DNA of 64,000 nucleotides from Eledone cirrhosa (Eukaryota): NCBI GenBank assembly GCA_964016885.1, contig OZ024741.1, forward strand, positions 231,384,001 to 231,448,000, read 5' to 3'. The translations under genes were made by a program, and so were the position numbers. The notes below the pieces were generated by a model, which ran no database searches, was not told where the DNA came from, and was given only the letters and a program-made list of their open reading frames with translations. Positions 11,634 through 49,047 of this stretch are shown here, piece by piece; the stretch's first letter is position 1; every line of letters begins with the position of its first letter.

Positions 11634-12271
11634 TCTATATTACTTAAACAGAGAATGTATGTTTGTCTGTCTGTCTGTACAATCACTTAAACTCGAGATT
11701 CACCCAACGGTTGTTTTCAAACTTTACACATGTAATGCTTATGATCCTACTGAGTGTTCTGAGCAAAAGGAATTTCAAATGTTCAATGCCCTAGGGACCG
11801 CATTAGGCGATTTAGCGATCTCTTTCTCTCTCTCTTAGTTTTTCTCTTTTTAGATAGATACATAGATATGACGTCAGGCCTTTATAATATATGTCTGTAT
11901 GCCTGCTGTCTACATTACGCCATTTTGACGAGATCAGTGTGTGTGTCTGTATATATGAATATATAGTGTGTGTGTATATATATATATATATTCTTATGCT
12001 AGGGAACATCTTCACGAACCAAATATCGTCTTCCTGTTTCAACTTTATTCGAAATATTTACATCTGCGTTCACATATTGATTTTTTCAATTTTAGTTTCA
12101 GAAGATCCTGCTAAGGGTGAAAGCAGCGATTCTTTTCTTAAACTTTAATCTGTTATTTTAATATATATATATTTATAATTATTTATTCGTGTACAGATAT
12201 TTTTGCATACACAATAACAAAATATAAGAACCCTAGAGCAAATCCCGAGCAAAGCCGGGCCATTCTGCTAG
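11634..12271 (+). mobile_element. Non-autonomous Helitron carrying a captured PLE terminus with an HHR-like motif (12094-12144)
   Basis: Starts A|TCTATATTAC, has the hairpin CCCG-agcaaagc-CGGG at 12244-12259, and ends CTAG|T at 12268-12271. Internal 12000-12160 matches 2060-2230. Confidence 0.8.
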
Positions 12272-12313
12272 TATATATATACATATATATATATATATAC
12301 ATATATATATCTA

Positions 12314-12436
12314 TCCACTGATGATTTATAAGCGCCCACCTAAATATATTCTTACATGAATATATATTAGGCTTCTACATAAACTGGAAATATTCTCCCA
12401 ACTTGTAGAAAACTTATAATGAAACAATTGTTTGGA
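12314..12436 (+). ncRNA. Type I hammerhead ribozyme with a 96-nt branched stem II
   Basis: TCCA-CTGATGA-T-TTATAAG...CTTATAA-T-GAAAC-AATT-GTT|TGGA. The insert holds the hairpins CCTAAATATATTC/GAATATATATTAGG and TTCTACA/TGTAGAA. Confidence 0.75.
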
Positions 12437-13299
12437 AACGGAGATATACTTTAACTTTAATTATATCTCATAAAATAATACGACTGGTTTTTCCACATTA
12501 TACATATTGTTAGCAACCCAAACACATAAATTGGGTTTATATTTAAATATAACCTAATGTTTGTTGAGTGAGATGGTTACCAGTCAGAGTTTAGCTTTAA
12601 ACTATCTCTGTTATTGTATTAAATATTTACTCTTGATTGGCCAGAGGTGTTTATTTCCAGGTACCTTATGAATTTGACTTTCCGTATTTATTACTGTAGT
12701 GAAATGTTGTGGCTTTTTTTGGTTGTAACTTCTCTGTTTTTTAGCCTAAGAAAATATATATATGCCTATGTATATAATTACATGCATACCTTTATTTTCT
12801 TTAATTAATTGAGTTCTTTACACGAGGAATTAATATTAGTTGTGAAATAACTGATTAACCCGCGTGTGTTTTATATTTTACTCTTAATTCGGCCGGAGAT
12901 TTACATTCCCATTTGCCCTTTAAAGCATAACTTTCTGCGGTTATGAGATGTGGTTCTTATTCAGGTACAACTTCTGATTTTAGCCTAATAAAATATCTAT
13001 ATGCGTGTATAATTTATACACGCATTTATTTATTTTTTTTATTTTCAATTGAGTTCTTAACACGTTGGATTGATAATGTTTTCGAAAAAACTAATTAACC
13101 CGCGTGTATATTATTTTTTTCCTCCTTTCGTGGATCGTAGTTGTCTCCCCTTCCCGCTTCGTGTCGCTATGATACTTCCTCAGTCAAAAACTGCTGGAAT
13201 TTCAAATTTGGCGGTCATTCGAGGCGAGAAGGAGCAACTTAACAGGCACGATTTTTGACTGCGGTAAGAATGTCTTTCTTATATCAAAGTTTAATGGGC

Positions 13300-13424
13300 T
13301 TCCACTGATGATTTATAAACGCCCACTTAAATATATTCAAACATGAATATATATTAGGCTTCTACATAAACTGGAAATATTCTCCCAACTTGTAGAAAAC
13401 TTATAATGAAACAATTGTTTGGAA
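13300..13424 (+). ncRNA. Second copy of the long-stem-II hammerhead ribozyme
   Basis: TTCCA-CTGATGA (13305-13311) ... GAAAC-AATT-GTT (13417-13419) | TGGAA. Confidence 0.75.
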
Positions 13425-13606
13425 AGAGAGATATACTTTTACTTTAATTATATGTCATAAAATAATACAACTGGTTGTTTCACATTATACATATTGTTAG
13501 CACCCCAAACACATAAATTGGGTTTATATTTAAATATAACCTAATGTTTGTTGAGTGAGATGGTTACCAGTCAGAGTTTAGCTTTAAACTATCTCTGTTA
13601 TTGTAT

Positions 13607-13647
<41 letters not shown>

Positions 13648-13648
<1 letters not shown>

Positions 13649-13860
13649 AAGGCGTGTGGTTGAGTGGTTAGAGAATTGGATTCGCAATCGAAAGGTTGTG
13701 AGTTCGATTCCTGGACTAGGCGATGCGTTATGTCCTTGAGCAAGACACTTTATTTCACGTCGCTCCTTCTACGTGGAATTGCGACCGATATATAGTATTA
13801 GCAATTGGAAAGACCAACGGAACCATTGTTTCCTCGGTCCGATTTGACGTAGGTCGATCG
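13648..13860 (+). mobile_element. tRNA-derived SINE (CORE-like domain)
   Basis: A box TGGTTGAGTGG, B box GTTCGATTCC, then TGTCCTTGAGCAAGACACTT. Homologous 3' fragments lie at ~26825-26920 and ~38525-38630. Confidence 0.75.
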
Positions 13861-13949
13861 TTCCTTTAAAATATATATATATATATATGTGTGTGTGTAT
13901 AGCAGTGAAAGAGTGAAGAGTTTTTCTGGGTAAAGTCGAGCGCTTTATT

Positions 13950-15984
13950 TGGGAATATGGAAGAGTAGCAGTTATTGATATCAAAGTGTATGAAGTTGGA
14001 TGCTTCCCTACTGTCTATTTTACTAAACCAATCTATTGCGTCGTTAGTGTTACCCCAGGAGGAATTTTTAGAGATGACACGCTCCTTTTACCTAAAAATT
14101 TAAATTATCAAATCATGGAAAGGTTACGGAAAAACATCAGAATCTTCTTCAATAGACTAGGCCTATCACATTCCAACTTAACTCTAAAAAAGCAAATTTC
14201 TTAGATGTAACACTCAACCTAAACACAGGATTAATAGAGCCTTTCCATAAAAATAATGAGAATCTAGCCTGCATTAGTTATAACGCAAACCACCCTTGCT
14301 CCATATTTAATTCGATAGCACCTACTATATCCCTCAGAATATCCCGCCTATCTTCTAAACTGGAGATGTTTAACGAACACGCAAACTACTTTAACATAGC
14401 TTTACATAAGGCAGGCCACAAGGAGGGGCTCAAATGCATACCAGATAGAGGGAGCAACTACAAAGCTAACGACAACTACACTACTCTCACCCATAGGAAT
14501 AACAAATATAGAACTAAACATGGAAATAGACACCAGAAATATCCGAACCGAACACTAATATAGGGACCACTAGGAACTACAGAAAATCCAGAGATAGGAA
14601 ATACTTATGAGTTAATCCAATCTTCAACTCTTCTATAAAAACCAACCTTCCATCAACATTCTTTAAGGTAATTGACAAACACTTCCCTACACTTCACAAA
14701 TACCATAGAATCTTTAACAAAAAAACTATCAAACGCTCTTACTCTACTACAGCCAACATAGAAGAATCACACATGCATAAATTCAACTAAAGAAGAATCT
14801 CTAAGGAAAATAACCTACCAACATACACCATAGCACCAAATACAAAACGCAAACACATAACAACATCACAACCACACACACGTCAGGGAACATCGCAACA
14901 AACCATCAATAAACCTAAATCTCAGCCCATCCCTAACAACATGTCGCACTGCAGACTTTGGAATATGGAGTTGCTGCATATTTTAAATTATGATAAAATG
15001 ATGCTTAACAACAAAATAGAACGATCAATTTTCAGTAGGCACAAAGCAGCTACCAAGTTCTCTAACTTCAAACCGGCATGATTCGATCCAGCAATCTCAG
15101 AATTCAAGCAGTACCACCCGGCTTTTATTGTACTAGCTCCACACCACCCCTCTGTTATTAGCTGTCAACTGACCAACTGGTCATTAAATCAACATCATAA
15201 ATCTCCCAACATTTCTTTCACTCTCTCTATAGCCACAACACCTCCATTAAGATAAAACAATCAGTCTGCCAAACATTAACCACCCGACTATCATCACTGC
15301 CCCTTTCACTTTTTATTCTCTATCTATCTATCTACTCCTTCCCCGTCCTTACCTACCCCTTATGTCTCATTCTCGAATCCTTATCCCCACTCTCTGTCTC
15401 CTGTCTCTTATCTATTCCTCTGTCACTTATTTTTTATTTATTATTTTTTATCTTTTAACTTTTATTTGTTATTTTTCATTTTTTTATTTTTTTTATTCTA
15501 ATCCTCTGAGATTTGATCATATCTCTTGCATCTATACTACATATAATGTATTTAGCGTTCCTTTTCATGTTATTGTTATCTCTACCGTCATCATTACTTT
15601 ACATACCCACTTACTCACCACTGTAACTTCAACTACCGATGCCACCACCATTAATATTATCAGCAATCGTATTCTGTACTTAACTTTTACTTATCTTTTA
15701 CATCTTTATCATTTTCATTCTAACTTCTTTTTTATTATCTTTTATTATCTTTTATTATTGATGTTGTTGTTTTGATTTTCCGATGTATCTATAAATACCA
15801 ATGCCATGTGTTACACCCACCAGTATTCCGAAGATTTGATCAGAGACACAAACTGTATTTAAGGTCGAGTGACGCAACGTCGAGTGTTAGCGGCCTTTAG
15901 ACTCCCTTGATCAATGAAACAATTGTTGATACTGTAAATAAACCCTTTTTGAACAGCCGACCATGTTATTCTTCACTCTTTCAC

Positions 15985-16231: not shown

Positions 16232-17027
16232 AACGGAAAAAATGAAACGAAATTTCATTTCCCACTCTTAGTACGGCTGTTACTTAAATATAAGTATGTA
16301 CACGTACATACATATATGTATACAGACGTACAGTAGTATGTATATATATATATACATGCATGCACACATATGCACGTATGGATTCACCGAACATTTATTA
16401 TAATGCTCGGTGTGTTTGTAAACAAACATCCCGTATTAAGCCGTAGTGTCTAGCAACCATCGTTGCTCGTTTGTTCAACACTGACAAAGGAAAGCTGTAC
16501 TAGTTTCAAGCTTATTAGCTATCGTCAGCAACTTATACCTTTCTGCCAGATTGTTGAACGTATATACTTACATTATGCATATTAACGGCTGAGTAGTCCA
16601 ATTTGCATATCGAGTGGGTTAATCGGCCGGGTGCACCGAAAACGATAAACGGAAAAAATGAAACGAAATTTCATTTCCCACTCTTAGTACGGCTGTTACT
16701 TAAATATAAGTATGCACACGTACATACATATATGTATACAGACGTACAGTAGTGTGTATATATATATATATATACATACATGCACACATATATACATGCA
16801 CGTATGGACGATAGCTAACAATCTTGAAACTAGTACAGCGTTCCTTTGTCAGTGTTGAACAAACGAGCAACGATGGTTGCTAGACACTACGGCTTAATAC
16901 GGGATGTTTGTTTACAAACACACCGAGCATTATAATAAATGTTCAGTGAATCCATACGTGCATGTATATATGTGTGCATGTATGTATATATATATATACA
17001 TACTACTGTACGTCTGTATACATATAT
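16232..17027. repeat. Complex direct plus inverted duplication (A-B-C-A-B'-A')
   Basis: 16232-16382 recurs directly at 16648-16808, and 16310-16527 recurs inverted at 16809-17027. Confidence 0.85.
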
Positions 17028-20000
17028 GGTCTCACCGGGAATTGGGATCGCCGGAAATCGAACGTGATATCTGACGCCGAGGGGAAAAGGTTAATCCTTG
17101 GAATGAAAACATTCTCCCCTCTCCCGCACTCCATTACAATGGTGGCCTCAATCAAGTGTGGAGTCAGTGACTTGACGGCGATGCGAGTACCGTTGCACTG
17201 CTTTGGTGGACGCAAGTTCCTTATTAGCATAATGGGACAGCCAACCCTAATATTAAGAATGTGAGCTGGGTGCCCTGGGAGCTCAAGGGAATTTAATAAC
17301 TCAACCGGATAATTACCGATATCGTCGGGGTCTGACCTCTGGTCGATAGATTTGAAGATGTGCTCTTTACCGGTAATCAGCTGCTCCTTAATAAAATTAA
17401 TCATGGCATTTTTTGGAGCAAGGATGGCTCTTTCGCTGAGCCGATCGAGGTTTTTAAAGTTAGATGAGACATTAGGAAAAACTGCTTCCCAAACGTCAGA
17501 AGGGCTGCTCACAATGTTGAAACAGGGAGTCGATTGCTATGCCGCCCTTGTCATCCCCAGGGACCTTGCCCTCACCAAGTGCTAAAATGTTCTGAGCAAA
17601 TGCTGCAGACATGTTGTCACCATGCAAATGAGCACGCATATTTGTGCTCAAGTACAAACTCTTCACCTGAGGCCACAACGTGGACGACTTAAGGCAGACA
17701 CGCACTTCATCAACTCTTGTCCCTTTGGGGATGACAGGCAGCGTTTGCCGAAAATCCCCTGATAGCAGAAGGGGTACACCACCCATTGGAGCCGTAGAAT
17801 CCCTAATGTCATTCACGGTCCCGTACAATGCCTCAAGGGCACCCTTGTCTGCCATTGTGCACTCATGCCAAACAATGAGGCAACATTGTTTGAGAAACAG
17901 AAATTCGAAACTGATATTGCATGTTGTTGTCTCAGTTTTTATTAAATCCAAGGGGAGTTTAATGTGCTGTCCTGCAGCGAAGTAGCAGCTATCCCGGACG
18001 ATGCAACGGCCAATGCAATTTATTTTTCCTGCAGAATCTTAGCGAGTATCAATCTCTTTACAAAAGGTTTTTCCGGTACCCCAGGAGCATCTCGAAAGTA
18101 AATAACCCCAGTCTGATTTTGAACCGCGTCAATGATAGTTAAATAGGCCAACCTTTGGTCCGATAGAAGTTTGGGCTCATTTTTCTCTAAGTATTGGGAA
18201 AGAGATTCAATGTCATATGCTATTTCCCGCAGCAAATCCGGGGCTAACGTTTTACTTCCTCTCTGGCGGTTGACGGCAAGCCATATGTCGCCAACTCACT
18301 CCCACCCATGTCGAGGAGGGCGTCCTCGATATCAATGAGTGCCCTGTTGTAGATAATGTAGCTGTAACCAACTTCCACTGAAGGATACTGCAGATGAGCC
18401 AGGTGCAGGAAGTCCTCAGACATGAATTCTCTGTACTTGACCCATAAAGATTTGGGATCACCCAATTCACACTTTTGAAGCAAAATGGCAAAGATTGCCG
18501 TAGACTTTTAGGTGATTTCAGCAAAGCACCCTCTGCTAAAGTCGAATCCCATTGCGAATCATCTTCCAAAAGACCACGCTTAAAGAAGGCTTCCCGGTAC
18601 GTATCACATATTTCTCTATCAACAATTTTGAGGTCCTGAACACTTTGTGGGCTTACAAATTCATGCAGAAGAAGGTGGAGATGAAAGCATTCATGCTGAC
18701 TTAGGGGCAGCTGTCAAATTTTACACCAGATGTCTTTCAACAGCCTGACCTGATTTTCTTCGCACCCAAGAGTTTTTCGACCATATAAAGTAGGATCGAA
18801 CCTGGGGGTACACAATTGTTTGCGCAAATGTATCGAAATGGCAAAGTTTGAAGAAACCCGTTACAGTGTTCTCTTTCGGATCGGCGGCCAACTTGGCGGC
18901 GGTTTGGTCTGTAAAGTAAACCCTTTGCCCATTTTCCAAATGTACCGCAAGCTGTACGATGGCGGGGTGCCGTTGGTGTAGGGGTAAACCAAATAGGCGC
19001 CAAAAAGCCTCATTGCTACTGATGTACCGCCCCGCCAGCTATTCTGTGACCTCGTCCTTGCTTGAAATGCGAACATTGCGGCATCAGAGCCCATATTTAC
19101 ATATTTGCATATGTATTTTATCGACTTGACGGAGTTGCAAAACTCAACGTTGATGTGGGCTTTGAACATCTTCAAGAGAAGCGGGAAGTAAGTGAACACA
19201 TATCTATTGCCGACTTGACCTCCATTTACTGTTGTGGTGAAGCCACCGTTCTCGGACCGTCTGCGCCTGTAGAGGGGGTACCCGTCGCCACCAGACTGAG
19301 TCACGTCACATTTGTTTTGGGGTATCCCTTACTGCACAACCCCCCACCCCTCTTTCAGACACGTGTGATGCTCATTAGGACCCGACGCACACGGACCATG
19401 AACCATTTTAGCTTTGACGCTGTCATGTAATTCCTGGTCAGTTGCTGGGTTAGGGATTTCAGCCGAAATGAAGCTGTCTATGGCATTTGAATTGATTTTA
19501 TCAGCTAACCAAATCAAAATGTGAGCATGTGGCAACCCTCGCTTTTGCCATTCGACGGTGAATATGTCACATTTTACACCGCCAAATATCTGACCCTTTT
19601 TTATTAAAGCCATGAGTTTAGCCAGTTTTAGTCTCAACACTCTGGCAATGAGGTCATGTCTGTTCGAATAATTTTGCCCAGGAAATAGTTCACGGGTTAT
19701 CTCAACCCATGTCGGATTACACCGGAATGTAATGAACAGATCTGGGCGACCATAATGGCGCACATACGTCATGGCATCCTGGGTTTTTTCGTGCATGTAT
19801 CGAGGACCCTAACGTAGCTAGAGGGCAGGATACAAACCTTTCCAAGGTTTCTGGGATCTGCATCACTCCTTATGGCATCACAGAGGTGAATGTAGCATTC
19901 AGAAGCAACTGTTTCTGATGCGTGTGAATGAAGCATAACCTTTCAGACTCCATTTTTGCAGCCATATCAACTGCAAACTGATGGTAAAGCTCTCGTGATC

Positions 20001-22600
20001 TATGAATATTATTAAAACTATTCTGTCTGATCATGAAGCGGTAGGAATAAAAATCCATACAGGATACGCTTTTATTTGACGTCTTGTCAGGATTGTTTAA
20101 CGTCTGGTCAGGATTGTTTGACGTCTCGTCAGAATTGTTTGACTTGCTTTGAGGAATACCGAAATGGTATCCGTCTTCCCCATAAGCAAAAAGCAGTGGA
20201 TATTGTAGGCTGTCGTATGACCGATGCGTTTCACAAATCCTCTGCAGCGTATCGTCACGACTTTTAATGAGAATGTCCCTTTTTTATGCTGTTTTCCATG
20301 GAGAACAACGGCTAGTTCATTGCATGCGGGGGCGTTATAGCGGTGAGCATGCTCCCCAGATGGCCTTTTGTCAGCATCAATAACGATGTTGTAGTTGGGT
20401 ACAGGTGTTGATTCCAAGGCATATTTGAAGCTCTGGACGTAGCTATTGTTTTCATGAAGCATGCGTTGAAGACCGTGTAATACTACTCTCTTTGTCAACA
20501 GATTTACTTTTCTCGCCGTTAGACTTAGAAATAATAGAAATACACATGTCAGCCTGTCTATTGTCGTCAGTTATAAAGTACATTTGGAGAAACGCAGACC
20601 TTTCCGTTTGTTGAGGCTGGAGTGATCCAATTAGATGGTATATCTGTCCCTGAAATTTAAATGTGGGCACCAACCCTTCTTCTCAGACGACGCGTGCCCA
20701 GAAAGAGGTCATCTGAAAGGCACAATTATACTTTCTGATGAGTTCAAAAAATCTTTTCACCTAGGAGTTGTGCCAGTAAGAGGTTCTTTCAAAGGCTGCG
20801 GTGGGTCCTCTAGGGTGAGTAAATTAACCTTGCCATTGGAGCAGCACATTCCAGGTGGTTCTCCAGCCCACTTATTTGCACTACAGAACTTGCAAATTAA
20901 ACTCATATTCCCAATCTGGATGTCAGGCCGCATTGAGAAGTTAAGTGTTCGATCATAATTAAAAGCTTTTAAAAGCCAATATGAATTATTTTGACTTTTT
21001 ATGCCCCGGGCAGTTTCTTTACGCCGATTGTTCTTTTCAAGTCTAATACTGCGATCGTTGTGTGATTCTTTGGCTCTAGCAGCGGCAGTAGCCACAGCAT
21101 TACGGGAATTACAGATAGAACGGTCTAAATCACTAAGCTTAGCACGCGACGATGTATAGTAAGATGTATTGTTGGCTAGACGCGCACTACGCCTGTCGTC
21201 GGTTTCAGCAGCTCGTCTATTTGCTGAACGTAAAGCACTTTGTGACAATCGCAATTCAGTTTCCTCCTGCGATTCATTCAACCGTCTTTTCTGTTTAGCT
21301 GCAGACATCGTTTTACGACCAAGTGAGCATCTCTTTTTTGGAGGCATTATATCTGAAAATGTTAAACAAAAACCTTATGAAATTCTAAACTAAATGGTAA
21401 ACACATTTGAATGGAAGATGAAATGGCAAGGAAAAAAAAGTAAATAGAGATGCAATATTCAAACAAAATTGGGGGTAGGTATGACTAATTATCTACCAAC
21501 TGGTAGTATTTGGACGGAAAAGCAGAATATATGGGGGGAAAAAAAATCACTGAACAAACGTATTTGTAAGCTTAAAAGTGAAATGTTATGCTTAACAAAG
21601 TATTGACAAAATATTTTTAACAACGTAAAAGAAAGAAGAACATACAGGTAAACTTGGCTTGAAACCGAATAAGCTTTTCGAATTCTTATTTTAAATACCG
21701 TGATCGAGTGTTTCTGCTTCATGACCTTCTCCTGACCAAAAGCAATAATTGTCCCGACTTTGAATAGAATCTGTTGGAAATAAAACACTGGAAATATTAG
21801 AATTTATATGAAAATAAAAATAAAATATTAACAGACACTCACCTAATCAGTGTATTCGGCAGAATTGCCAGAACTACAACACTGTGGGTGTTGTTATATT
21901 CATATTTAACCAATTAAAGTCGTAAAAAATAAATAATTTAAACATTCCTATTCATATGGCTATAGAATTAATATGTTATATGAAGTGTTATTTTGCGGGT
22001 TGTTATTTGCAATAAGCCGATTTAAAATGCCCCAGAAAAGCCGTATGTCAATACGGAATGCCAATGACTCCCGCAGCAGTTAAATTATAGGGAGAGGGAA
22101 TGAGCTATTATAGAGAGAGGGAAGAGCGATGGAGAGAGTAAAGCTAAGAAACTATAGGGAGGTGTGCCGTATGTCAATACGGAACGCCAATGACTCTCGC
22201 AGCAGTTAAATTATAGCGAGGGGTAATAATCTATTATAGAGAGAGGGAAGAGCGACGGAGAGAGTAAAGCTAAGAAACTATAGGAGGTGTGTAAAACAGT
22301 GTTGTCATATAGAGAGTGAAGAGCGCCAGAAAGAGTAAAGCAGTTAAATTATAAAGAGGGGAAATGATCTATTATAGAGAGAGGGAAGATCGACGGAGAT
22401 AGTAAAGCGAAAAAACTATAAGGAGGTGTCTTAAACTTCAAAGCATGATCGATTTTTGCCCTTATTCTTGATTGATTTGAAATGTTTTTCCGTTCCAGAC
22501 CTTCTCCTCACCGAAATCAAGAAATGTCCCGACTTAGAATAGAACCCGTTGGAAATTGTGGAGGTGCATACGTTACAAAACTTAACTCACACATCATCAG

Positions 22601-23776: not shown

Positions 23777-23900
23777 GTGCGTAAGGTTTTTCGAAATATT
23801 TACTTCTGCGTTCACAGATTGATTAATTTAGTTTCAGAAGATCCCGTTAAGGTTGAAAGCCTCGATTCTTCGTTTAAACTTTAATCTGTTATTTTAATAT
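23435..23900 (+). mobile_element. Partial second copy of the 11634-12271 Helitron family, with the same HHR cargo (23830-23880)
   Basis: Collinear with 11648-12160, e.g. CAAATGTTCAATGCCCTAGGGACCGCATTAGG and AGTTTCAGAAGATCC. Confidence 0.75.
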
Positions 23901-26934: not shown

Positions 26935-29220
26935 TATAGGAACAAGTAAGACCCCGACGGCTGAGCTCAAGCCGTTTCGACAGCTAATTCTGGACTGATT
27001 GAAAATTTATTCTGGTATTTAAATAGCCGAGCTTATCAAGGGGTAATTCCATATATGGTCAAAGAGACAATCACCAGGATTGGTCACATCACAAGTTAGT
27101 AGTAAATCGGTGATGGCAAATTGGTGGGAGAAGGGGTAGCTAAACCTGCCTGTAGGAGAAAAAGGGAGAGCGGGTGGAGTAGACCCATTCATGCGTTGGT
27201 AGTGCCGGCTACAGCTGGGCGTGAGGTCAAATGGATACTGGGGAGGGGGAGGAATTCGAAACGGTAAGTAGAACAATGAAGGGTAAAACTATAAACAGTA
27301 CTGAGAGAGAAAAAAATAAGCAAAGTCTGGTTACTAAGACTTAAGTCTCTCGCTATTGCTAGGCTAAAGAAATACATAAATAAATAAATAAACAAATACG
27401 TGAATAAAAGAATAGATAAATAAATTTTAAAATATATATAATGAAGAATAAAATACTAAAGAGACTGCCACGAAATAATAAAGGTGTCTACCCCAATCAC
27501 AGGGCCAGCAACCACCCAGTGCAAGAAAGTAAACTAGTACGAGAATATAATTTAGGGTCCCGCAATACTAGTGCTAACTCTAAGGGTACAGCCACGAAAC
27601 GAAAAGTCTTATACACGCTACATGAAAGATCGTACGAAGTAAAAGTAAAGAACGGAAAATTAATACAGAACCCCCCCCCCCCCCTCCCCAACAAAGGGAA
27701 AAAGAAGAAAGAAATACTGGATAAACGAGAAATTAAAGCAAAGATGCCACTAAGAAATATAGAAGGCACGGAAAAAAGGTACAGCGGTCGGAGAAGGGGG
27801 CAAGTATCCGAAGTCTAACACCTCTGCTATAAAAAGCGGAGTCAGTCAAATCTATCATAGAATAGTGGAGGGGGGTGGGGGTGCTGAAGCTACAAGGGAC
27901 CGAGGGGCTACCTCGGGTGGGCGAGAAAAAGACGACGACAAAGAAAAAGAACTGGGGTAGAAGGACTAGGGAGGGATGGGGGAAGAAGGAAAGCGATAAA
28001 AGAATGTAAAAGAAGATCTTACGTCTCCATTGGCAAGCAGAGATTACCCATTACAAAATAGGCAAGTGGGGTGTTATAGCCCTAGTCTACCACCCCCCGG
28101 GTCATTATGGGGTTTGAGGGGAGGTAAGTCCTACGTAATCGGTGTTTACATGCAGTAACCAGTTCATCTTTCTTGTTTAGGAGTTGGTCCGTCGAAAACA
28201 GCATTTGTAAAGTTTCCCCCGAGCATAAATTGCACGGACGGCGTCCTCCCGTGTAAGAGTTGGCTCTGGACAGTAATTTCCAAGTGAGATCATAGTTGAT
28301 GTTGTTGTCCTCGAGGTCCCATATGTGGCCCGAAAGTGTAGTGGCGTGACGCCGGGCCGGATTTCGGAAGGTATGTCTGTGTTGGTATAGCCGGGTCTTG
28401 AAGTCACATGCGGTTAATCCTATATAAGCTTTGTTGGAGGTGTCCGTGCTCACGTTGCACTGGTAGATCACATTACGGTCTCTGCATCTGTTGTCGAGGG
28501 GGCAACTGGGTCTATCAGGACAATTGCACCTCCTGGTCGGCTCTCCACTGCTATTTAGGTTGTTTCTTCCATCGGGGTTGAGTTTTTTGTTGTTGGAGGA
28601 GACGATGTTTTGTGCGAAGTTAGGAGTAGTGCTGTAAGAGAGTTTGATGGTATTTTTGTTAATTTTGTTGTGGTAGCCGTGTTGTGGTGGGAAGTGTTTT
28701 TCAATGAGCCTAAAGAAAATTTTCCCGATGGGAGTTGTCACCTCGGCGTTGTGGGGAGGATTGAACCATGTTACATTGCGTGAGCGGCGGTGTCGCCTGC
28801 TGGTTCCGCTAATGGGAGCTGGACAGTAGGATATTTCCTCCCGGAAACCACTCCGCTTGAGGGCCTGGTTGTAGTATGGCGCATGTTCATCGAATATCTT
28901 CTCATTAGCTGACAAACGGGATATGCGGAGGGAGATGTTTTTGACCAGGTTGTTGGTGATGTTCCTAGGATGGTTAGATCGGCGGTGGTTGTAGTGCAGG
29001 TTGTCATTGGGTTTCCTGTATGGGTAGTACAGGTCATTATTGAGATCAAGGGTAACGTCCAGGTAACGTCGGGTCAGGGACGTTTGTAGGGTTATTTTAA
29101 ATCCCCAGTCGCGGAAGAAGCTGATTAATTGTTTACGGACCCGATCTGTACTACTGGGGTTGTACCCTTTAAGGGTAAGGAGCCCATCATCACGGTACAA
29201 TCCACCACCGAAAGCAGGAA
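26935..29220 (-). mobile_element. Penelope-like element 3' half: RT C-terminus, linker and GIY-YIG (ORF 28082-29248), probably Naiad-type
   Basis: GLYRDDGL, YLDVTLDL, WFNPP, CNCPDRPSCPLDNRC, NVIYQC...AYIGLT...FKTRLYQH and CNLC, followed by a 3' UTR ending in an HHR. Confidence 0.95.
26951..27044 (-). ncRNA. Type I hammerhead ribozyme with a U3-A8 core at the PLE 3' end
   Basis: Minus strand ACCCC-TTGATAA-G..CGGCTA...TAGCTG.C-GAA-ACGGCT tgagctc AGCCGT-C|GGGGT, with a GUC triplet. Confidence 0.7.
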
Positions 29221-30529
29221 TTAACTTTACCTTCGGATGCTCACGCAAAAAATCGATCTATTTGCGAAAAGACTTAGATGGAGAACTTTTTTCTACGACA
29301 GATTTTGCGACAATCAGGACTTCGGTACCAAGGAGAGATTCGGATTTATTACCTACAAATCTCCCCCCCCCCAAAAAAAAACCTTTGCTCTCACCCTTCG
29401 AGAATGACCTCTTCCAACTGGTCAAGAACCTTAAATTCAAACCCAGACACAACCTATTCCTACAAAAACTCCGTAGCAACTTAACAGAGTATGATAACAC
29501 CAATGACATCATGGTGCATTCGGATAAAACTCGGAACCTATACTTTGTCAACCCCGACAGATACCACACACTGATCAGGAGCAGCCTAAACTCCACCTAT
29601 AAAAGGCTAACCACTCATGCATCGAGGACATTAATCGAGATGGACTGGCAGTATCGGTAGAGGGTCGGACGCCATGCTTTGACGCATAGAGTTACGGCCC
29701 TTGCCATTCTGAGTTCAAATCCCGCCGAGGTTAACTTTGCCTTTCATCCTTACAGGGGTCGATAAAATAAAGTACCAGTAATGTACTGGGTAATTGCTGG
29801 CCTTGTGCCAAAAAGTAGAAAGAATTAATCGAGATGGACAACAAATTACCTCCAGCCTCGGGGTCGCTGACCGCACCGAACCCCTAGACACACGGACACC
29901 ATACTTCACACTGAAGGACCACAAATCCGATTTCGACCGTAAACCATCTATCAGGCTTATAAACCCAACGAAGTCCGACATAGGGAGAATCAGAAAAAAA
30001 TCCTAGACCGCGTGATACCAAAAGTCAAGCAACACGCCCGACTTAGCCTATGGATCAACACCCAGGAAGTTATCTCATGGTTCAGCAATATGGAGGATAA
30101 ACGAGACACCAAATTTATCCAGTTCGACATAGAGAGCTACTATGCTTCTATCACCTTACCGCTACTTACTGCCGCCTTGGACTTCGCCGAAGCACTTGTG
30201 CCCATTACCGACCAGGAAAGAAAAATCATCCTCCACGCCAGGAAGACAGTCTTACCCTTTGACAACTCCAAATGGATAAAAAGAGCTCCCGACTCACCCT
30301 TCGACGTCAGCATGGGCGCGACGGATTCGGCGGAGGTCACAGATCTTATAGGATTATTCCTTATAGCCAAACTCACCGATATGTTTCCTGCTTTCGGTGG
30401 TGGATTGTACCGTGATGATGGGCTCCTTACCCTTAAAGGGTACAACCCCAGTAGTACAGATCGGGTCCGTAAACAATTAATCAGCTTCTTCCGCGACTGG
30501 GGATTTAAAATAACCCTACAAACGTCCCT
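29221..30529 (+). mobile_element. Inverted 5' half of the same PLE (RT N-terminus to YRDD), interrupted by a SINE
   Basis: SDKTRNLY, LKDHK...RLINPTKSDIG, FIQFDIESYY, FDVSMGATDSAEV and GLYRDDGL. 30385-30529 is the exact reverse complement of 29076-29220. Confidence 0.95.
29646..29823 (+). mobile_element. tRNA-derived SINE with a 16-bp target-site duplication
   Basis: TSD ATTAATCGAGATGGAC at 29630-29645 and 29824-29839; B box GAGTTCAAATC. Confidence 0.9.
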
Positions 30530-33529: not shown

Positions 33530-36500
33530 GTTTAACGTCCACCTTCCACGTTTGCATGGATTTGGACGGGAATTTTCCCACTTGCGGCAAGATTGGTTGT
33601 CTTGCTCGTATAGGACTGTCTGGTTGGTTTTCTACGGCTGGATGCCCTTCCTAACACCAACCACGTTTACAGTGTGGACTGGGCGGTTTTTACCGTGTTA
33701 CCTACAAGGCCACATTAGAGCGTGGACTGTGTGTTTTTTTGTCGTGACACGTACACGACCTCATTTATTTCGGACTGCATGTTGAGATACCAACATAACT
33801 TTACATCGAAAGGGGTGGTGTGGATGGGGTGGTGGTAGTGGGACGGGGGTGTATTTTTGTTAAGAGGTGCCTACTGACTGTATGTTTCGCTTTGTACTTA
33901 GGCAAGGCGGGTGTTCTGTATTACTGTGTAGCGCCAAAGATCTCGGTCCAGTGACATTGTCTTGGAGAGGTGTGTGTGTGGTCGGAATTTATCAAGTCGT
34001 CCCAGGTTTTCCTGGGTCTGCCTACTCCGTGGCTACCGTCTATTTTTATCGCCCTGCACTTTTTTATACAGCTGTCGTCTTTCATGCGCATCACGTTACC
34101 ATCCCAACGTAGTCTTCTCTCGACTAACAACATCTGATCCCTCTTATTCCTAATTTCTCCCTTAGTTCATTTATGCTTTGTCGTTCACGTATATTACTAT
34201 TACACATCCAACGGAGCATGCAAGCTTCGTTCCTCTCCAGTTTACGTATATCCTCTGCACACAATGCCCAAGTCTCACTGCCATGTAACATTGCTGTTCG
34301 TATGCAGGCATCATACAGCCTACCTTTCATTTTTAGAGATAACCCTTTAGCGGCCAATAGTGGTATAAGCTCTCTGAACTTTTTCCATCCCGTTCTGACT
34401 CTAGCTACTGTACTTTCAGTGCACACTCCACCACTGCTGATTGTGTCACCCAGGTAACGGAAGGTGTCCACTATTTCTATAGAACCATCTGTCCAATGGA
34501 ATGAACTAGTATTCTGTGGGCACTTGCTGCTACTTATTGCACCTGAGCACCGGCCACATATAAAATCTATATTCTTAGTTAGCTTACTTGTGATCCCACT
34601 ACATCTTTTATACACTCATACTTTGCATTTGGGACATAAAATGGAGTTTCTGCCTACTCCTTTCCAACACACTGAGCATGGCCATTTCCCAGATGGGACC
34701 AATGCCCTATTTTCCTTCATACAAACTAGAACTTTAGTCTTAGACAGGTTAATTTTAAGGCCTTTAGATTGAAGACCATGCTTCCATGTTTGTAATTTCT
34801 TCTCTAGTTCAGCCATTGATTCCGCTAAGAGCGTTAAATCATCTGCGTATAGGAGTTCCCATGGACAGCCGGCCTTGAACTCCTCTGTTATAGCCTGAAG
34901 GGCAATAATAAATAGTAGGGGGCTAAGGCCGGAGCCCTGATGAACACCAACTTTTACGCAAAACTCTTCACTATATTTGTTGTTAATTCTAACCTTGCTG
35001 ACTGTTTCTTTATACATGGCTTCTATAGCTCTCACAAGCCATTCATCAACACCTAATTTTCTAAGAGCCCACCAGATAATGGAGCGGGGGACTGTCAAAG
35101 GCTTTCTTCAAGTCAATAAATGCTAAGTATAGGGGTTTACTTTTAGCTAGGTACTTCTCCTGTAGTTGTCGTACAATGAAAAGAGTGTCTGTGGTACTTT
35201 TACCTGACACAAACCCGAACTGTATTTCACCTAGATCAATTCGCTCTCTGATTAGTTAAAATATTACTTTTTCTGTGACCTTCATGACCTGGTCAATTAA
35301 TTTAATGCCTCTATAGTTTCCCCTATCTAGGGCATCTCCTTTACCCTTGTATCAGTTAATGATGCTGCTGCTACGCCAGTCCTTCAGAACGACCCCATTC
35401 TGTATGACTTGGTTTACTATCCGGGTAACCATACTGTGTTCCACCGTTCCATATGTTTTCAGAATTTCAGCAACTATTTTCGAAGGCCCAGCCGCCTTGC
35501 CTGTCTTCATATCTTTGATTGCCTTACTTATTATACTATCTTCAACTTGCACTGCTGGTCCCTCTATTGGATTGATGTGGGGGAGACTGTCTTTCTCCTA
35601 TTTGTTCTCCTCATTTAGTAGTCTTTCGTATTGGCACTTCAAGCTACCTTCTTATAAGCGTCAGTGATGGCAAGTACACCATCATCATTAAGCACACACT
35701 TCTCCCCGACAATATCACGGTTTTCCATGACACATTGGTTAGCAATCCTGAACACATCACGTTTTGGTCCTCGCGTTGTAGAACATGCTTGAACTTTCTT
35801 TCCTCTGCTTACCTTCTTGCGAAGTACACTTGTCTCCTAGCTTCTCTCCTGGCCACTTGATAGTCTTCTCTACTTCTCCCATCACGCCATGCTTTCCAAG
35901 CCTGCTTTTTGGCCTTGATTGACTCCTCCACCTTACTGTTCCACCACCAAGTTACTCTCCTCCTGCATGTAGGTCTGCTCCAGCCACATATTTCATCTGT
36001 CGCCTTCAGCGGGTTAGCTTTCAGGAATCCCACTGTTCCTCTATATTGTACGACTCTAATTGCTCTTCCTTACTATCAAAAGCATCAAATAATATGCTTT
36101 TAAATTTATTACTCTGCTGTGGGGTCCTTTAGCTTCCATATTTTTCTCCTGGGGATAATCCTCCTCTGTTGTCGAGTACGTCTCGTCCTGACTATGAGGT
36201 CGCTAATTATGAGTCTATGTTGAGAGGTGCATTCTTAATGGGGGAGGGATTTAGTATTTACAACAGACACTCTGTCACGTCTTCTGGTAAGGATATAATC
36301 TATCTGACTGGCCTGTTCCCCTGATCTATAGGTGATCCAGTGATTGTCTCGTTTTTTGAAGTTAGTGTTACAGATAGTTAGGTTATTTGCGTCACAGAAT
36401 TCCAGGATTCTGGAGCCTTCCTCATTTCTAGTACCAAACCCATAGCCTTCGTGGATTCCGTCATAATGTTGTCCAACGTGACCATTTAGGTCGCCAGCGA

Positions 36501-43153: not shown

Positions 43154-45368
43154 ATACAAAAACAGTAATAAATACGGAAAGTCAAATTCATAAGGTACCT
43201 GGAAATAAACACCTCTGGCCAGTCAAGAGTAAATATGTAATACAATAACAGAGATAGTTTGAAGCTAAACTCCGACAGGTAACCATCCCACTCAACAAAC
43301 ATTAGGTTGTATTAAAATATAAACCCAATTTAAGTGTTTGGGGTGCTAAACTCTGACTGGTAACCATCTCACTGAAATTCCAGCAGTTTTTGACTGAGGA
43401 AGTATCATAGCGACACGAAGCGTGAAGGGGAGACAACCCACGAAATGAGGAATAAAAAAATAATATACACGCGGGTTAATTAGTTTTTTTGAAAACATTA
43501 TCAATCCGACGTGTTTAAGAATTCAATTGATAATAAAAAAAATAAATATATGCTTGTATAAATTACACACGCATATAGATATTTTCTTAGGCTAAATCAG
43601 AAGTTTGGGAGAATGTTTCCAGTTTATGTAGAAGCCTAATATATATTCATGTAGGAATATATTTAGGTGGGCACTTATAAATCGTCAGTGGAAGCCCATT
43701 AAACATTGAATATAAGAAAACAAATTTCTTACCGCTGTCAAAAATCATGTCCGTACAGTAGTCTCTCTCACATCGAATGACCGCCAAACTTGAAATACCA
43801 GCAGTTTTTGACTGAGGAAGTATCATAGCGACACGAAGCGGGAAGGGGAGACAACCCACGAAATGAGGAAAAAAAAAATAATATACACGCGGCTTAATTA
43901 GTTTTTTTGAAAACATTATCAATCCGACGTGTTTAAGAACTCAATTGAAAATAAAAAAATAAATATATGCTTGTATAAATTACACACGCATATAGATATT
44001 TTCTTAGGCTAAATCAGAAGTTGTACCCGAATAAGAACCGCTTCTCATAACCGCAGTAAATGCAGAAAGTTATGTTATAAAGGGCAAATGGGAATATAAT
44101 TCTCCGGCCGAATTAAGAGTAAAATATAAAACACACGCGGGTTAATTAGTTATTTCAAAACCAATATCAATTCCTCGTGTAAAGAACTCAATTAATAAAA
44201 GAAAATAAATACATATATGCATGTAATTATATACGTAGGCATATATATATATATTCTTAGGCTAAAAAACAGAAGTTACAACCAAAAAAAGCCACACTAT
44301 TTCACAACAGTAATAAATACGGAAAGTCAAATTCATACGGTACCTGGAATTAAACACCTCTGGCCAATCAAGAGTACATATTTAATACAATAACAGAGAT
44401 AGTTTAAAGCTAAATTCTGACTGGTAACCATCTCTCTCAACAAACATTAGGTTATATTAAAATATAAACCCAATTTAAGTGTTTGGGGTGCGAACAATAT
44501 GTATAATGTGGAAAAACCAGTTGTATTATTTTATGAGATATAATTAAAGTTAAAGTATATCTCTCTTTCCAAACAATTGATTCATTATAAGTTTTCTACA
44601 AGTTTGGGAGAATGTTTCCAGTTTATGTAGAAGCCTAATATATATTCATGTAGGAATATATTTAGGTGGGCACTTATAAATCGTCAGTGGAAGCCCATTA
44701 AACATTGAATATAAGAAAACAAATTTCTTACCGCTGTCAAAAATCATATCCGTACAGTAGTCTCTCTCACATCGAATGACCGCCAACTTTGAAATTCCAG
44801 CAGTTTTTTACTGAGGAAGTATCATAGCGACACGAAGCGGGAAGGGGAGACAACCCAAGAAATGAGGAAAAAAAAAATTATATACACGCGGCTTAATTAG
44901 TTTTTTTGAAAACATTATCAATCCGACGTGTTTAAGAACTCAATTGATAATAAAATAATAAATATATGCTTGTATAAATTACACACGCATATAGATATTT
45001 TCTTAGGCTAAATCAGAAGTTGTACTCGAATAAGAAACGCTTCTCATAACCGCAGTAAATGCAGAAAGTTATGTTATAAAGGGCAAATGGGAATATAATT
45101 CTCCGGCCGAATTAAGAGTAAAATATAAAACACACGCGGGTTAATTAGTTATTTCAAAACCAATATCAATTCCTCGTGTAAAGAACTCAATTAATAAAAG
45201 AAAATAAATACATATATGCATGTAATTATATACGTAGGCATATATATATATTTTCTTAGGCTAAAAAACAAAGAAGTTACAACCAAAAAAAGCCACAATA
45301 TTTCACAACAGTTATAAATACGGAAAGTCAAATTCATACGGTACCTGGAAATAAACACCTCTGGCCAA
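43151..45368 (-). mobile_element. Minus-strand tandem array of the ~1-kb HHR unit (period 999 nt), with rearranged partial copies; HHR at 44567-44692
   Basis: Reverse complement of the 12314-13612 unit. ATCGTCAGTGGAAG occurs at 43681 and 44680. The HHR core reads CTGACGA...GAATC (A15.1 mutated). Confidence 0.85.
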
Positions 45369-45802: not shown

Positions 45803-48800
45803 AAGGATTAAAATACTGGAGCGTGTTGGAGTTAAACACCCTCTTCGTATTATAGAAATGACAGTAAACGGTATAGCTCAATGCAGTTAAACAGCCAAAA
45901 AATTAATAGAGTAAAACAAAGAAGCCTTTAATACATCAAAAGTTTTTATTAGCCGACAATGTTTCGTCATCCATAAGTTAACCCACTGGACTCGTAATAA
46001 GTTAACCCACCATAAGTTAACCCACCATAAGTTAACCCATCCATAAGTTAACCCACCGGACTCGTAATAGCAAATATAATACCTCTAGGAGACAAGTTGA
46101 ACCCCCTGTGCGCTCACGCATTGGTGATGGTTTTGCTGGATCTTATTCTAAAAATGTTGCTCCTACTGATCCTATCATTGGCCCTAATCCTTTTGAAGGG
46201 ATTCCGGACAGCAGCAGATCTACTGGAGGTAGAAACTATAATAGACATAATGAAATTATGGCTGATTCTATGAATGTGGCTTTAACTAATCCTTGTAGTA
46301 ACCCTAGTCTCGATGGTGGGACATTTGATAAAGGTAGGGTCGGTAAGAATAAAAATAGAAGGCTATTAAATACTTATTTTAACCCGCCATATAATCAGGA
46401 TGTATCAACTAATATCCCTAGGTCTTTCTTCACTATCTTAGAGAAAAATGTCCCCCCTTCTCATAAATACCATGGTATTTTTAATAAAAATGTTATTAAA
46501 CTCTCATTCTCTACCACCCCTAATATTAGTTCTCATTTAGCTAGTACTAATAATAGGAAAATTAGGGATGGATTCTCCTCTCTACATACTACTAGTCTGA
46601 ACGGATCTGACAATGCTTTACCACCAGAACAGTCCTTATCTAATAGAAATCCTACGTGTAATACATCACCACTCGAGCCAACCAATAACACCCGGAAGTG
46701 CAATTGTAGAGTGAGTTCTAACTGCCCTTTAAACGGTAACTGCCTTTCTAAGAACATTGTCTACGCTTGCGAAGTTATAACTAATTCCTCTAATAGAACT
46801 TATATAGGATCTACTTCAAACACTTTTAAGACTAGGTTTAACTCTCATACCTCTAACTTCAAACATGTTAGGTTTAAGAATTCTACTTCTTTAGCGCATT
46901 ATATCTGGGCTCTTAAGGGAGCTAATATACCATATAGCTTTAACTGGCGTTTAGTAGCACGCTCTAACCACCTTTCTACACATACTAAGTTTTGTAATCT
47001 CTGTATCCTTGAGACACACTCTATAATTTTCTCTAGCGTTTCCTTACTTAATAGAAAGTCTGAGATATTCTCTTCTTGCCCCCACGCTATTTCTAATTCT
47101 TACTTTTATTATAAACCCAAACGTTCTAGTAGTACAAATTGTACCCATTAGCAGATATATTCCATTACTTATTTTTTAGTTTAGGTTCTTTTGTTTGCCA
47201 ACATTATTGTTATCATCATTATTACCATTGGTTTTTGATGACTCTTTATTCTAGCTCTCATAATCATTTGGCTACTGTACCATATCTGTCTTCTTACGCA
47301 TTATATTTTCACTATTACACCTTGTGAATATATATAAGATTACACACTTTACGCCATTTACTTTATTTTATTATTATCTTCATTTTTATTTTTATTTTTA
47401 TTTTTTATTTTATTTTTTATTTTATTTTTATTTTTAGTTTTATTCAGATTCATCTTCGGATAACCCCCCCCCCCCCATGCACACGTAAACTTATTGTCAA
47501 CCCCTCCAAATTGACTATGATTATATTTAAACCCCCCCCCCCTCTTTTACGCTCCGTTCTATTATTTATTATAGTATATCGACTATATTTTATGCCCCTT
47601 TGCATCCTCCATATATTTCTTCAATTCTGTCCCCATTAGCCTACCTTAATTCTACTTAAATCAGTTTTTTAGATATCATTATGTATATGATAGAAAAAAA
47701 TTTCATTCCTTTTTGTAAACATTTGTAACGAAACATTAAAGTTTATAAACTTTAATGACTTAAATTATAGCTAATATTATACTACCTTATTGGATAGTTT
47801 TAAAATTGTTAATATTAATTTATCAAATAGGGTTTTGAGTCATTTACAGGGATTGTTTTCCTTAGTTTTTACCTAACTACTTAACCGCATGTGAGACCTA
47901 AATGTATATATTTGTTTTTGTTTTGTAATTTCCGGTTGATTATATTTATTTATTTTATTCTATATTTTATAATCTATTTACTATTCACTGTCTGGCATTT
48001 ACTTACACATCCACATATGTCTGTCTGCAAACCTTATAAGTATTTATATATTATTTTATGTCAATTTATTTTATATAATATATTATATTATATTGTATTG
48101 TAATATTGTAATATTGATCCTTATTACTTACTGTTCATTATATGTAACATTATGATATTTAAACTTTATATATCATGTAAGATGTCTGTATTTTTTCTGT
48201 ACCATCATAATTTTTTTCTGTACCATCATAATATTTTTTTGAGTATTGTATAATTTATTTTTCCTTATTTACTCTGTAACCCAGTATGAATCGATTTGTA
48301 TATATTGTTTATTGTAAATGTTAGTACATTGTTAACATATTATTATTATATTATTATTGTGACATCTATATTGTTTGTGTATATTAACCGGGGATTATCT
48401 ATTATATTGAATTATATAATTTTATTGTTTATTATTTATTATATGTGTTTCTTGTAATTATATCATATTATTACCTAATGTATATTGGGTAGATGTATTG
48501 GTATTATTATTATTATTATTTTCACTCTTATCATGCTTATTTTTATATTCAAACTCCTAATAAGGTTTAATTTGTGTAGTTGAAGATAGATGTGCGTATT
48601 GTTGTATGTGTGTGTGTGTGTGCGTGTGCGCACATATATACATGTACATATTGTATCTTTTTATTGTAATTTTAATGTTGGTAAAGGTATATTATTATAA
48701 TGTATTATGTTATATTACATTGTGTTATATATAATTCCTGCTCTATATAACCACCTTTGTTTAGCTTTAGGTTATTTGCTTTGGACTATATTTGTAATAT

Positions 48801-49045
48801 GGTTCTTAATGTTATATACATCCTTAGTTATACTTATTATATATTTTTATTATTTTTATTTTAATTATATATTTTTGCAAGACTTTAGTGTATGTACACT
48901 CCATATTCTTCGGAGCTTCCGGCTTGTATCTGCCGATATTACTTCTTGTTGTTTTAATTGCCCTGATGAGTCCTTAATAGGACGAAACATTGTCGGCTAA
49001 TAAAAACCGTTGATGTATTAAAAGCTTCTTTGTTTTACGCTCTTA

Positions 49046-49047
<2 letters not shown>
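45803..49047 (+). mobile_element. 5'-truncated Penelope-like element with an inverted terminal copy at its 5' end; GIY-YIG ORF 46108-47151
   Basis: YFNPPY, CNCRVSSNCPLNGNC, NIVYAC...TYIGST...FKTRFNSH and CNLC. 45903-45968 is the reverse complement of the 3' end 48981-49047. Confidence 0.92.
48960..48997 (+). ncRNA. Minimal type I hammerhead ribozyme (canonical core)
   Basis: GCC-CTGATGA-GTCCT taat AGGAC-GAAAC-ATT-GTC|GGC. Confidence 0.88.

Follow-up and report, generated by a model that had tools for sequence, protein, structure and literature searches.

A probable non-LTR retrozyme family with a branched hammerhead ribozyme in (TA)n microsatellites of Eledone cirrhosa

The non-coding insertion at positions 12314-13612 of the window, a 64,000-nucleotide stretch of the Eledone cirrhosa genome, is one aged copy of a large family of elements that carry type I hammerhead ribozymes. 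We consider it probable that this insertion is a non-LTR retrozyme, or non-autonomous Penelope-like element (PLE), which entered (TA)n by way of a circle and rolling reverse transcription by a borrowed PLE reverse transcriptase (RT)/endonuclease. This reading builds on what is observed, namely a large family whose copies share a fixed 3' end, vary at random in their 5' ends, form tandem laps, lack an ORF, and have a conserved, covarying ribozyme fold; from these features we infer the individual steps of the mechanism. A preliminary description of the window had proposed that type I hammerhead repeats stand here in tandem, as in non-LTR retrozymes, and the assignment stands: the units are tandem, of type I, non-coding, and dispersed in high copy number, and autonomous PLEs are present in the same genome.

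The insertion and its genomic family

The insertion consists of one 987-nt unit followed by a second lap of 312 nt. Its features, and a second family member in the window, are as follows.

12272..12313 (the run reaches 12314), no strand: (TA)n target microsatellite, 5' side
12314..13612, plus strand: whole insertion, 1.3 laps of the 987-nt unit, 5'-truncated, with a fixed 3' end that merges into (TA)n
12314..12436, plus strand: left type I hammerhead, predicted cut after U12432; stem I 12314-17/12433-36, CUGAUGA 12318-24, GAAA 12421-24
12424-31: palindromic stem III of the left hammerhead, ACAAUUGU
12325..12420, plus strand: branched stem II, 96 nt, from folding and covariation; U.U at 10.1-11.1, a 7-bp helix, single-stranded GCCCA 12334-38, hairpin A 12339-71, hairpin B 12373-12410
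12433..13419, plus strand: predicted monomer, 987 nt, non-coding, 31.7% GC, which double cleavage would release
12626..12874, plus strand: internal duplication, copy A, identical to copy B in 181 of 257 columns (70%)
12877..13114, plus strand: internal duplication, copy B
13280..13300, plus strand: predicted distal stem I strand and loop I motif (UAUAUC 13280-85; UGGGC 13295-99)
13295-99 with 13321-25: predicted pseudoknot, UGGGC with GCCCA
13301..13423, plus strand: right type I hammerhead, predicted cut after U13419, with private changes in the hairpin A loop
13420..13612, plus strand: segment of about 190 nt between cut site and fixed 3' end, the putative internal RT priming site, ...CTGTTATTGTATTAA
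13609-13613: interval within which the 3' boundary of the insertion lies
13610..13639, no strand: (TA)n target microsatellite, 3' side
43155..45368, minus strand: second family insertion, rearranged, about 90% identical, with two hammerheads (44551-44713 and 43554-43714)

The two laps form a direct repeat (12314-12613 and 13301-13600, offset 987 nt) with 96% identity, which extends to about 312 bp with 12 substitutions. The earlier picture of two hammerheads 987 nt apart within a direct repeat of some 310 bp holds, both cores being readable, as do the (TA)n runs at the two ends (12272-12314 and 13610-13639) and the lack of a credible ORF: on both strands of the circularized 987-nt monomer there is no ATG ORF of more than 60 aa, the length of the longest. 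The internal sub-duplication is likewise present, with a larger extent than was first claimed (12626-12874 versus 12877-13114). The element had also been said to begin exactly at stem I and to be delimited by its hammerheads. The former is true of the 12314 copy but is no rule for the family: among at least 41 distinct loci with a TA junction up to 30 nt upstream of the hammerhead start (these come from the first 100 of 187 matches listed), 4 begin at stem I and the rest are scattered over those 30 nt. The latter has to be abandoned: what is fixed is the 3' boundary, some 190 nt beyond the cut, and the 5' start is a random truncation. In the 30 best loci, some of which overlap, almost every copy terminates in ...CTGTTATTGTATTAA(TA)n, the 5' ends vary, and only the 12314 copy starts at position 1. 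Since the 5' ends of the family are random and its 3' end is fixed, the start of this copy at stem I is a matter of chance, and the family appears to be bounded by a fixed internal RT start and a random stop rather than by its ribozymes.

Searched genome-wide, the core-plus-stem-II pattern has 2,168 exact matches (reversed control, 0), a looser pattern for divergent forms has 526 that partly overlap with these, and there are 1,777 occurrences of the exact 3' end with TA directly after it. A DNA search of the same genome returned 2,664 candidates; 39 were scored, many of them full-length at 91-97%. The family is also abundant in four sequencing runs, of unspecified kind, from one study. Arrays, with one type I hammerhead per unit, reach about 4.7 laps, and the family is thus high in copy number, TA-flanked, and tandemly arrayed, as had been supposed. 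Copies were sized from the first 100 of the 1,777 3' ends (30 with only 1.5 kb of flank, which one copy ran off) and have a median length of 478 nt. Strict core matches number none in 51 of these copies, one in 43, and two or more in 6, and TA stands at the 5' junction in 75. Beyond the stem III/cut motif, 60 of 76 copies run on for 179-193 nt before reaching their 3' end. The family hence combines a fixed 3' end, variable 5' truncation, partial tandems, and a microsatellite target, and its fixed-3'/random-5' copy pattern is that of Penelope-like elements.

This layout resembles the ends of PLEs in the genome, which carry a hammerhead 85-260 nt before the (TA)n end, and the unit could accordingly be read as an autonomous PLE's pLTR/3'UTR encountered apart from its ORF, or else as a satellite spread by recombination, with a chance hammerhead-like motif. 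Either is highly improbable, and the reading is largely refuted: a PLE ORF, an attachment that the preliminary description had itself raised as the alternative, is joined to 0/100 of the sized copies; in every subfamily observed, full units wrap back onto their own 3' end, such that upstream of a full monomer lies its own 3' end without an ORF; the insertions are dispersed and polarized; and the covariation discussed below obeys hammerhead rules. A plant-type LTR retrozyme was also considered and rejected, the hammerhead being of type I and not type III and the 5' ends varying, without fixed ends.

Unit lengths are 687-768 nt in the divergent subfamilies and 987-1030 nt in the young subfamily. 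The 250-nt duplication is absent from the 690-770-nt subfamilies, and in a ladder-like, midpoint-rooted tree of 32 rows, the 15 long units form one clade (100/100) nested among short ones. Given this nesting, the 990-nt unit is best seen as a young clade derived from the 690-770-nt units by the 250-nt duplication; the size of about 1 kb would be a recent accident of that duplication, as the short units are without it and the long units are one nested clade. The label "unusually large" given to the element does not survive, since published retrozyme consensus lengths span 51-972 bp, from a search that was capped at period 1000 (bioRxiv 10.64898/2026.07.22.740005).

The hammerhead ribozyme and its branched stem II

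Each repeat reads UCCA-CUGAUGA-(96 nt)-GAAA-C-AAUU-G-U-U^UGGA, which provides the CUGANGA, GAAA, and NUH elements of the core with the stems in type I order, a proximal stem I of 4-5 bp, and a stem III of 2 bp closed by a palindrome, a hallmark of dimeric cleavage (PMC4209133). Both cores place the predicted cut where the preliminary description had put it, after 12432 and 13419. The ribozyme had been called atypical, as is borne out by its 96-nt branched stem II and the U.U at 10.1-11.1, where the 12314 copy lacks the canonical R10.1-Y11.1 pair. A T at 10.1, giving the non-canonical U.U, is present in 23/42 aligned copies, other subfamilies having G-C, G-U, or A-U, and a U.U at the base of helix II is tolerated in the weakly active axolotl HHR_Amex2 (PMC7229834). 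Rfam returns no hammerhead family match at E<=10 across 12250-13650, and among the 150 of 289 matches listed for the whole window, which are mostly microsatellite noise, none is a hammerhead at the element; the 96-nt stem II is the likely reason for this miss. A minus-strand ribozyme was sought at the element and not found, leaving one polarity only.

The left hammerhead region folds with z = -4.1 (0/200 shuffles as low) and the right one with z = -3.1 (2/200). The catalytic fold is distinct from the predicted minimum-energy fold, at a cost of 2.5-3.2 kcal/mol for the left ribozyme and, for the right one, 2.6 kcal/mol alone and about 9 with flanks, all computed with a program that cannot model the pseudoknot; this cost, like the U.U at 10.1-11.1, weighs against activity. 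Across 42 diverse copies, a structure comprising stem I, the stem II helix, the two hairpins, and the stem III palindrome has 91.5% of its cells paired, against 87.3% in shuffles (0/500 as high) and 39-48% when slid. One pair in stem I is U-A in 29 copies and C-G in 11, one in the stem III palindrome is G-C in 20 and A-U in 19, and 6 of the 13 pairs of hairpin A have changes on both sides, although the copies are related, so that these counts are inflated by kinship and are not of independent events; the invariance of the core in this set is, moreover, partly circular, many of the loci having been found with core patterns. For these two reasons the retest used 64 copies picked by their 3' end alone. 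Here the core is intact in 49/64 copies, and conservation is 96.7% in the core versus 87.6% in the insert; position 17 is U in 52, C in 6, A in 5, and G in 0, with 1 gap; and loop III is either AAUU or GAUC, with matched counts of 41/41 and 22/22. As judged from these alignments, the conservation pattern is that of known hammerhead rules and supports a conserved, covarying hammerhead that would be under selection.

The predicted distal stem I has 88.4% of its cells paired and the putative YGGGC/GCCCA pseudoknot 88.5%; both display little covariation, two pairs of the pseudoknot having one double change each. Pseudoknots in which stem I contacts stem II are common in hammerheads (PMC3088659). 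One possibility, which we advance tentatively and hold to be somewhat improbable, is that the 96-nt stem II is a functional domain that docks onto loop I by the pseudoknot, and serves as a switch or as the site where the Penelope protein binds, so that cleavage would be coupled to mobilization. Were this so, natural hammerheads would include a structural class that Rfam and short-stem descriptors fail to see, and PLEs regarded as "hammerhead-less" or "half-core" may hide ribozymes with a branched stem II. Owing to 5' truncation, the left ribozyme of the 12314 copy is without the distal stem I and the UGGGC loop, and hence without the predicted loop I contact. This, along with its barely monomeric length and the 4% divergence of its repeats, suggests that the copy is probably a weak or dead donor.

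Template topology and the source of the reverse transcriptase

In the mechanism we favor, a locus with at least two hammerheads (6/100 sampled copies) would be transcribed; two ribozymes might then pair through the palindromic stem III and cut at NUH to release a monomer of 0.7-1.0 kb, which a host ligase such as RtcB could close. A PLE protein would nick (TA)n and start cDNA internally, at a fixed site some 190 nt beyond the cut, and the RT would cross the ligation junction in a run of variable length (median 478 nt, up to about 4.7 laps), after which the cDNA end would join the target, often at TA microhomology. There is precedent for several of these elements: retrozyme circles, RtcB ligation, and dimeric cleavage (PMC7229834), and a PLE RT that starts internally on RNA and nicks AT-rich DNA (PMC11167929). 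A point against the mechanism is that only one of nine Xenopus retrozyme dimers was cleaved in vitro (bioRxiv 10.64898/2026.07.22.740005).

The circle might, however, be unneeded. A non-autonomous PLE could move as a linear multimeric transcript, as MRC1 does in Chlamydomonas, with the hammerhead trimming the 5' end or being a passenger, and the tandems inherited from tandem donors. We rate this as rather unlikely overall. It accords with the internal start of the PLE RT on linear RNA, with uncleaved RNA being the main substrate and hammerhead cleavage being dispensable for insertion in vitro (PMC11167929), and with the same partial tandems being generated by non-autonomous PLEs that have no hammerheads (PMC8557442). 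Certain of the 5' ends point the same way: of the 20 loci that begin at the cut site (15 at the first base after it; no clear excess over the 13 and 19 in two control windows), 15 are single pieces of about 190 nt, as cleaved linear templates would give; further, among the first 100 of the 1,777 3' ends, 16 copies have their 5' end 160-186 nt away from the 3' end, compared with a single copy at 187-262 nt. These starts at the cut site and the pile-up just 3' of it are hints of cleaved linear templates, but the pile-up coincides with a TA-rich microhomology stretch. Against a linear template also stands the palindromic stem III, which is kept by compensatory change. Moreover, given that only 6/100 copies have two hammerheads, near-identical arrays of up to about 4.7 laps would be hard to sustain from shrinking linear donors; as only these 6% of sized copies can yield a monomer, length must be regenerated in the family.

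The arrays themselves bear on the circular template that we prefer. In 36 loci, 58 locus-private variants are common to the laps of one array versus 235 confined to one lap, and the median divergence within an array, 1.4%, is only modestly below the 1.9% to the nearest locus, being lower within the array in only 21/36 loci. In the array at C2:73.04 Mb the full laps have 0 differences in 300 nt, with 5 to the nearest other locus. In an array at C1:343.058-343.063 Mb, full units of 995 nt alternate with deleted ones of 711 nt, and between the two short units there is 1 difference in 690 sites. This alternation is possibly the trace of a heterodimeric circular template, or else of local duplication.

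The circular monomer is predicted to fold at -231 kcal/mol with 61% of bases paired, far better than chance (z = -6.8, 0/30 shuffles). In mussels, moreover, retrozyme circles vary in sequence to a degree described as consistent with replication of the RNA (PMC7229834). Together, these points might suggest a viroid-like replicon that copies RNA to RNA, the genomic copies being endogenized by-products, and the preliminary description had indeed spoken of a replicon. We find such a replicon very hard to credit. The fold is branched and not rod-like, the ribozyme lies on one strand only, and nothing supports RNA-to-RNA replication; the ladder-like tree and the thousands of polarized, 5'-truncated insertions are explained by retrotransposition alone. 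The element has no match in the phage collection, nor, searched as an exact pattern, in viral and metagenome contigs.

As for the RT, the genome has two very abundant families with tens of thousands of first-look candidates and intact ORFs of 915 aa and about 995 aa, which we label PLEs on the basis of a GIY-YIG hit, a weak RVT_1 hit, and the pLTR layout; their hammerheads lie 85-260 nt before the (TA)n ends. The first is represented in the window at 46027-49046; it has a GIY-YIG domain at its C terminus, an AT-rich 3'UTR 1.9 kb long, and, at 48963, a canonical hammerhead. Copies with the intact 915-aa ORF carry two pLTRs with hammerheads, and their 3' end takes one of two positions about 100 nt apart. 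A further copy of this hammerhead lies at 58717-58753 on the minus strand, and one match to the Rfam Hammerhead_1 family is listed for the window, at 58715-58759. In the second family (38,944 first-look candidates), about 260 nt separate the hammerhead from the longer 3' end, and another end follows the hammerhead at about 190 nt. PLE RT fragments that are broken and have their 5' pieces inverted are seen at 13911-14799 and 28109-30518.

Blastn and nhmmer comparisons of 10 natural units with 10 PLE loci of these two families (8 with long ORFs and 2 others) found no terminal similarity to a PLE partner, the sole match being a separate, nested retrozyme copy. By eye, a short 3'-terminal resemblance (AAAGCTT..CT.TGTT..TTAA) is discernible in the 915-aa PLE and the 356-nt repeat described below. 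The family closest in 3' motif was rejected as a partner, being itself non-coding. PLE fragments lie beside three of the 100 sized copies, at least about 500 nt away and unrelated. The suggestion that the PLEs neighboring the insertion supply the RT is therefore not upheld: the pieces at 13911-14799 and 46027-47148 are broken, and the two intact families share no DNA with the unit, such that the proximity likely reflects the shared (TA)n target.

Several other elements were observed. A non-coding tandem family with a unit of about 356 nt (1736-2232, 11990-12160, and 23790-23895; 1,205 first-look candidates) has a hammerhead-like motif, with CAGAAGA replacing CUGANGA and a U.U at the base of stem II. 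Its predicted cut falls about 20 nt before the (TA)n end, and over its final 30 nt it is similar to the 3' terminus of the 12314-13612 insertion. Genome-wide, at least 12 further families carry a hammerhead-like core that precedes a (TA)n end by 40-360 nt; stem II is long and irregular in several of them, and the genome appears to be rich in hammerhead-bearing, TA-targeting elements. Directly after the 3' (TA)n, a short element at 13645-13860 with a tRNA-like head and a B-box-like GTTCGATTCC is probably a SINE; ARAGORN predicts no tRNA there. The window also contains Helitron remnants with PIF1 helicase and Helitron_like_N domains (17003-21374, minus strand) and an RVT_1 fragment of a LINE-type element (34616-35107, minus strand).

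Relationship to known systems

If active, this family would add to animal ribozyme-made circular RNAs a class of 0.7-1.0 kb, and to natural hammerheads one whose stem II is branched, conserved, and overlooked by standard searches. With thousands of copies, an RT start fixed some 190 nt beyond the cut, and lap numbers that vary, the family allows a direct test of whether Penelope-type tandems and pseudo-LTRs arise from circular templates, and of what purpose the hammerhead serves. In the literature consulted, neither the family nor a hammerhead with a branched stem II is described, and supplementary files or Repbase/Dfam may list the family; the terms ribozyme, retrozyme, and hammerhead have 0 occurrences in the accessible text of the octopus repeat-annotation paper (PMC13282606).

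With the PLEs (PMC4209133, PMC11167929, PMC8557442) the family shares partial tandems giving pseudo-LTRs, 5' truncation, microsatellite targets, and a fixed RT start downstream of a dimer-type hammerhead, and non-autonomous PLEs such as MRC1 are known (PMC8557442); the Eledone unit differs in having no ORF and in its large, structured stem II in place of a minimal one. As in the pseudoknot hammerheads (PMC3088659), a Watson-Crick contact is predicted between the stem I and stem II regions, but the stem II partner is here the junction strand of a branched insert, conserved with little covariation. The definition of Li, Clavereau, and Pollet (2026), at least two consecutive hammerhead units, applies to the family, the size of which lies at the top of the 51-972 bp range in their sample of 31 vertebrates, 3 insects, and 1 anthozoan; homology to pLTRs was reported there for 24/57 Xenopus families, in contrast to none here with the two PLE families (bioRxiv 10.64898/2026.07.22.740005).

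The closest counterparts are the metazoan non-LTR retrozymes (PMC7229834), which are similarly non-coding, low-GC tandems, present in thousands of copies and having a single type I hammerhead in each unit, a short palindromic stem III, co-occurring PLEs, and, in the axolotl HHR_Amex2, the U.U at the base of helix II. Circles have been demonstrated for those retrozymes, whereas the Eledone family is known here from its DNA sequence; its units are 690-1030 nt versus about 170-400 nt, and it differs in the 96-nt four-way-junction stem II, the strict targeting of (TA)n, and the fixed internal 3' end. The finding hence extends and does not overturn the current understanding: the kind of element is already known in animals, and this family is set apart by its conserved four-way-junction stem II and its strictly (TA)n-targeted, internally primed insertion.
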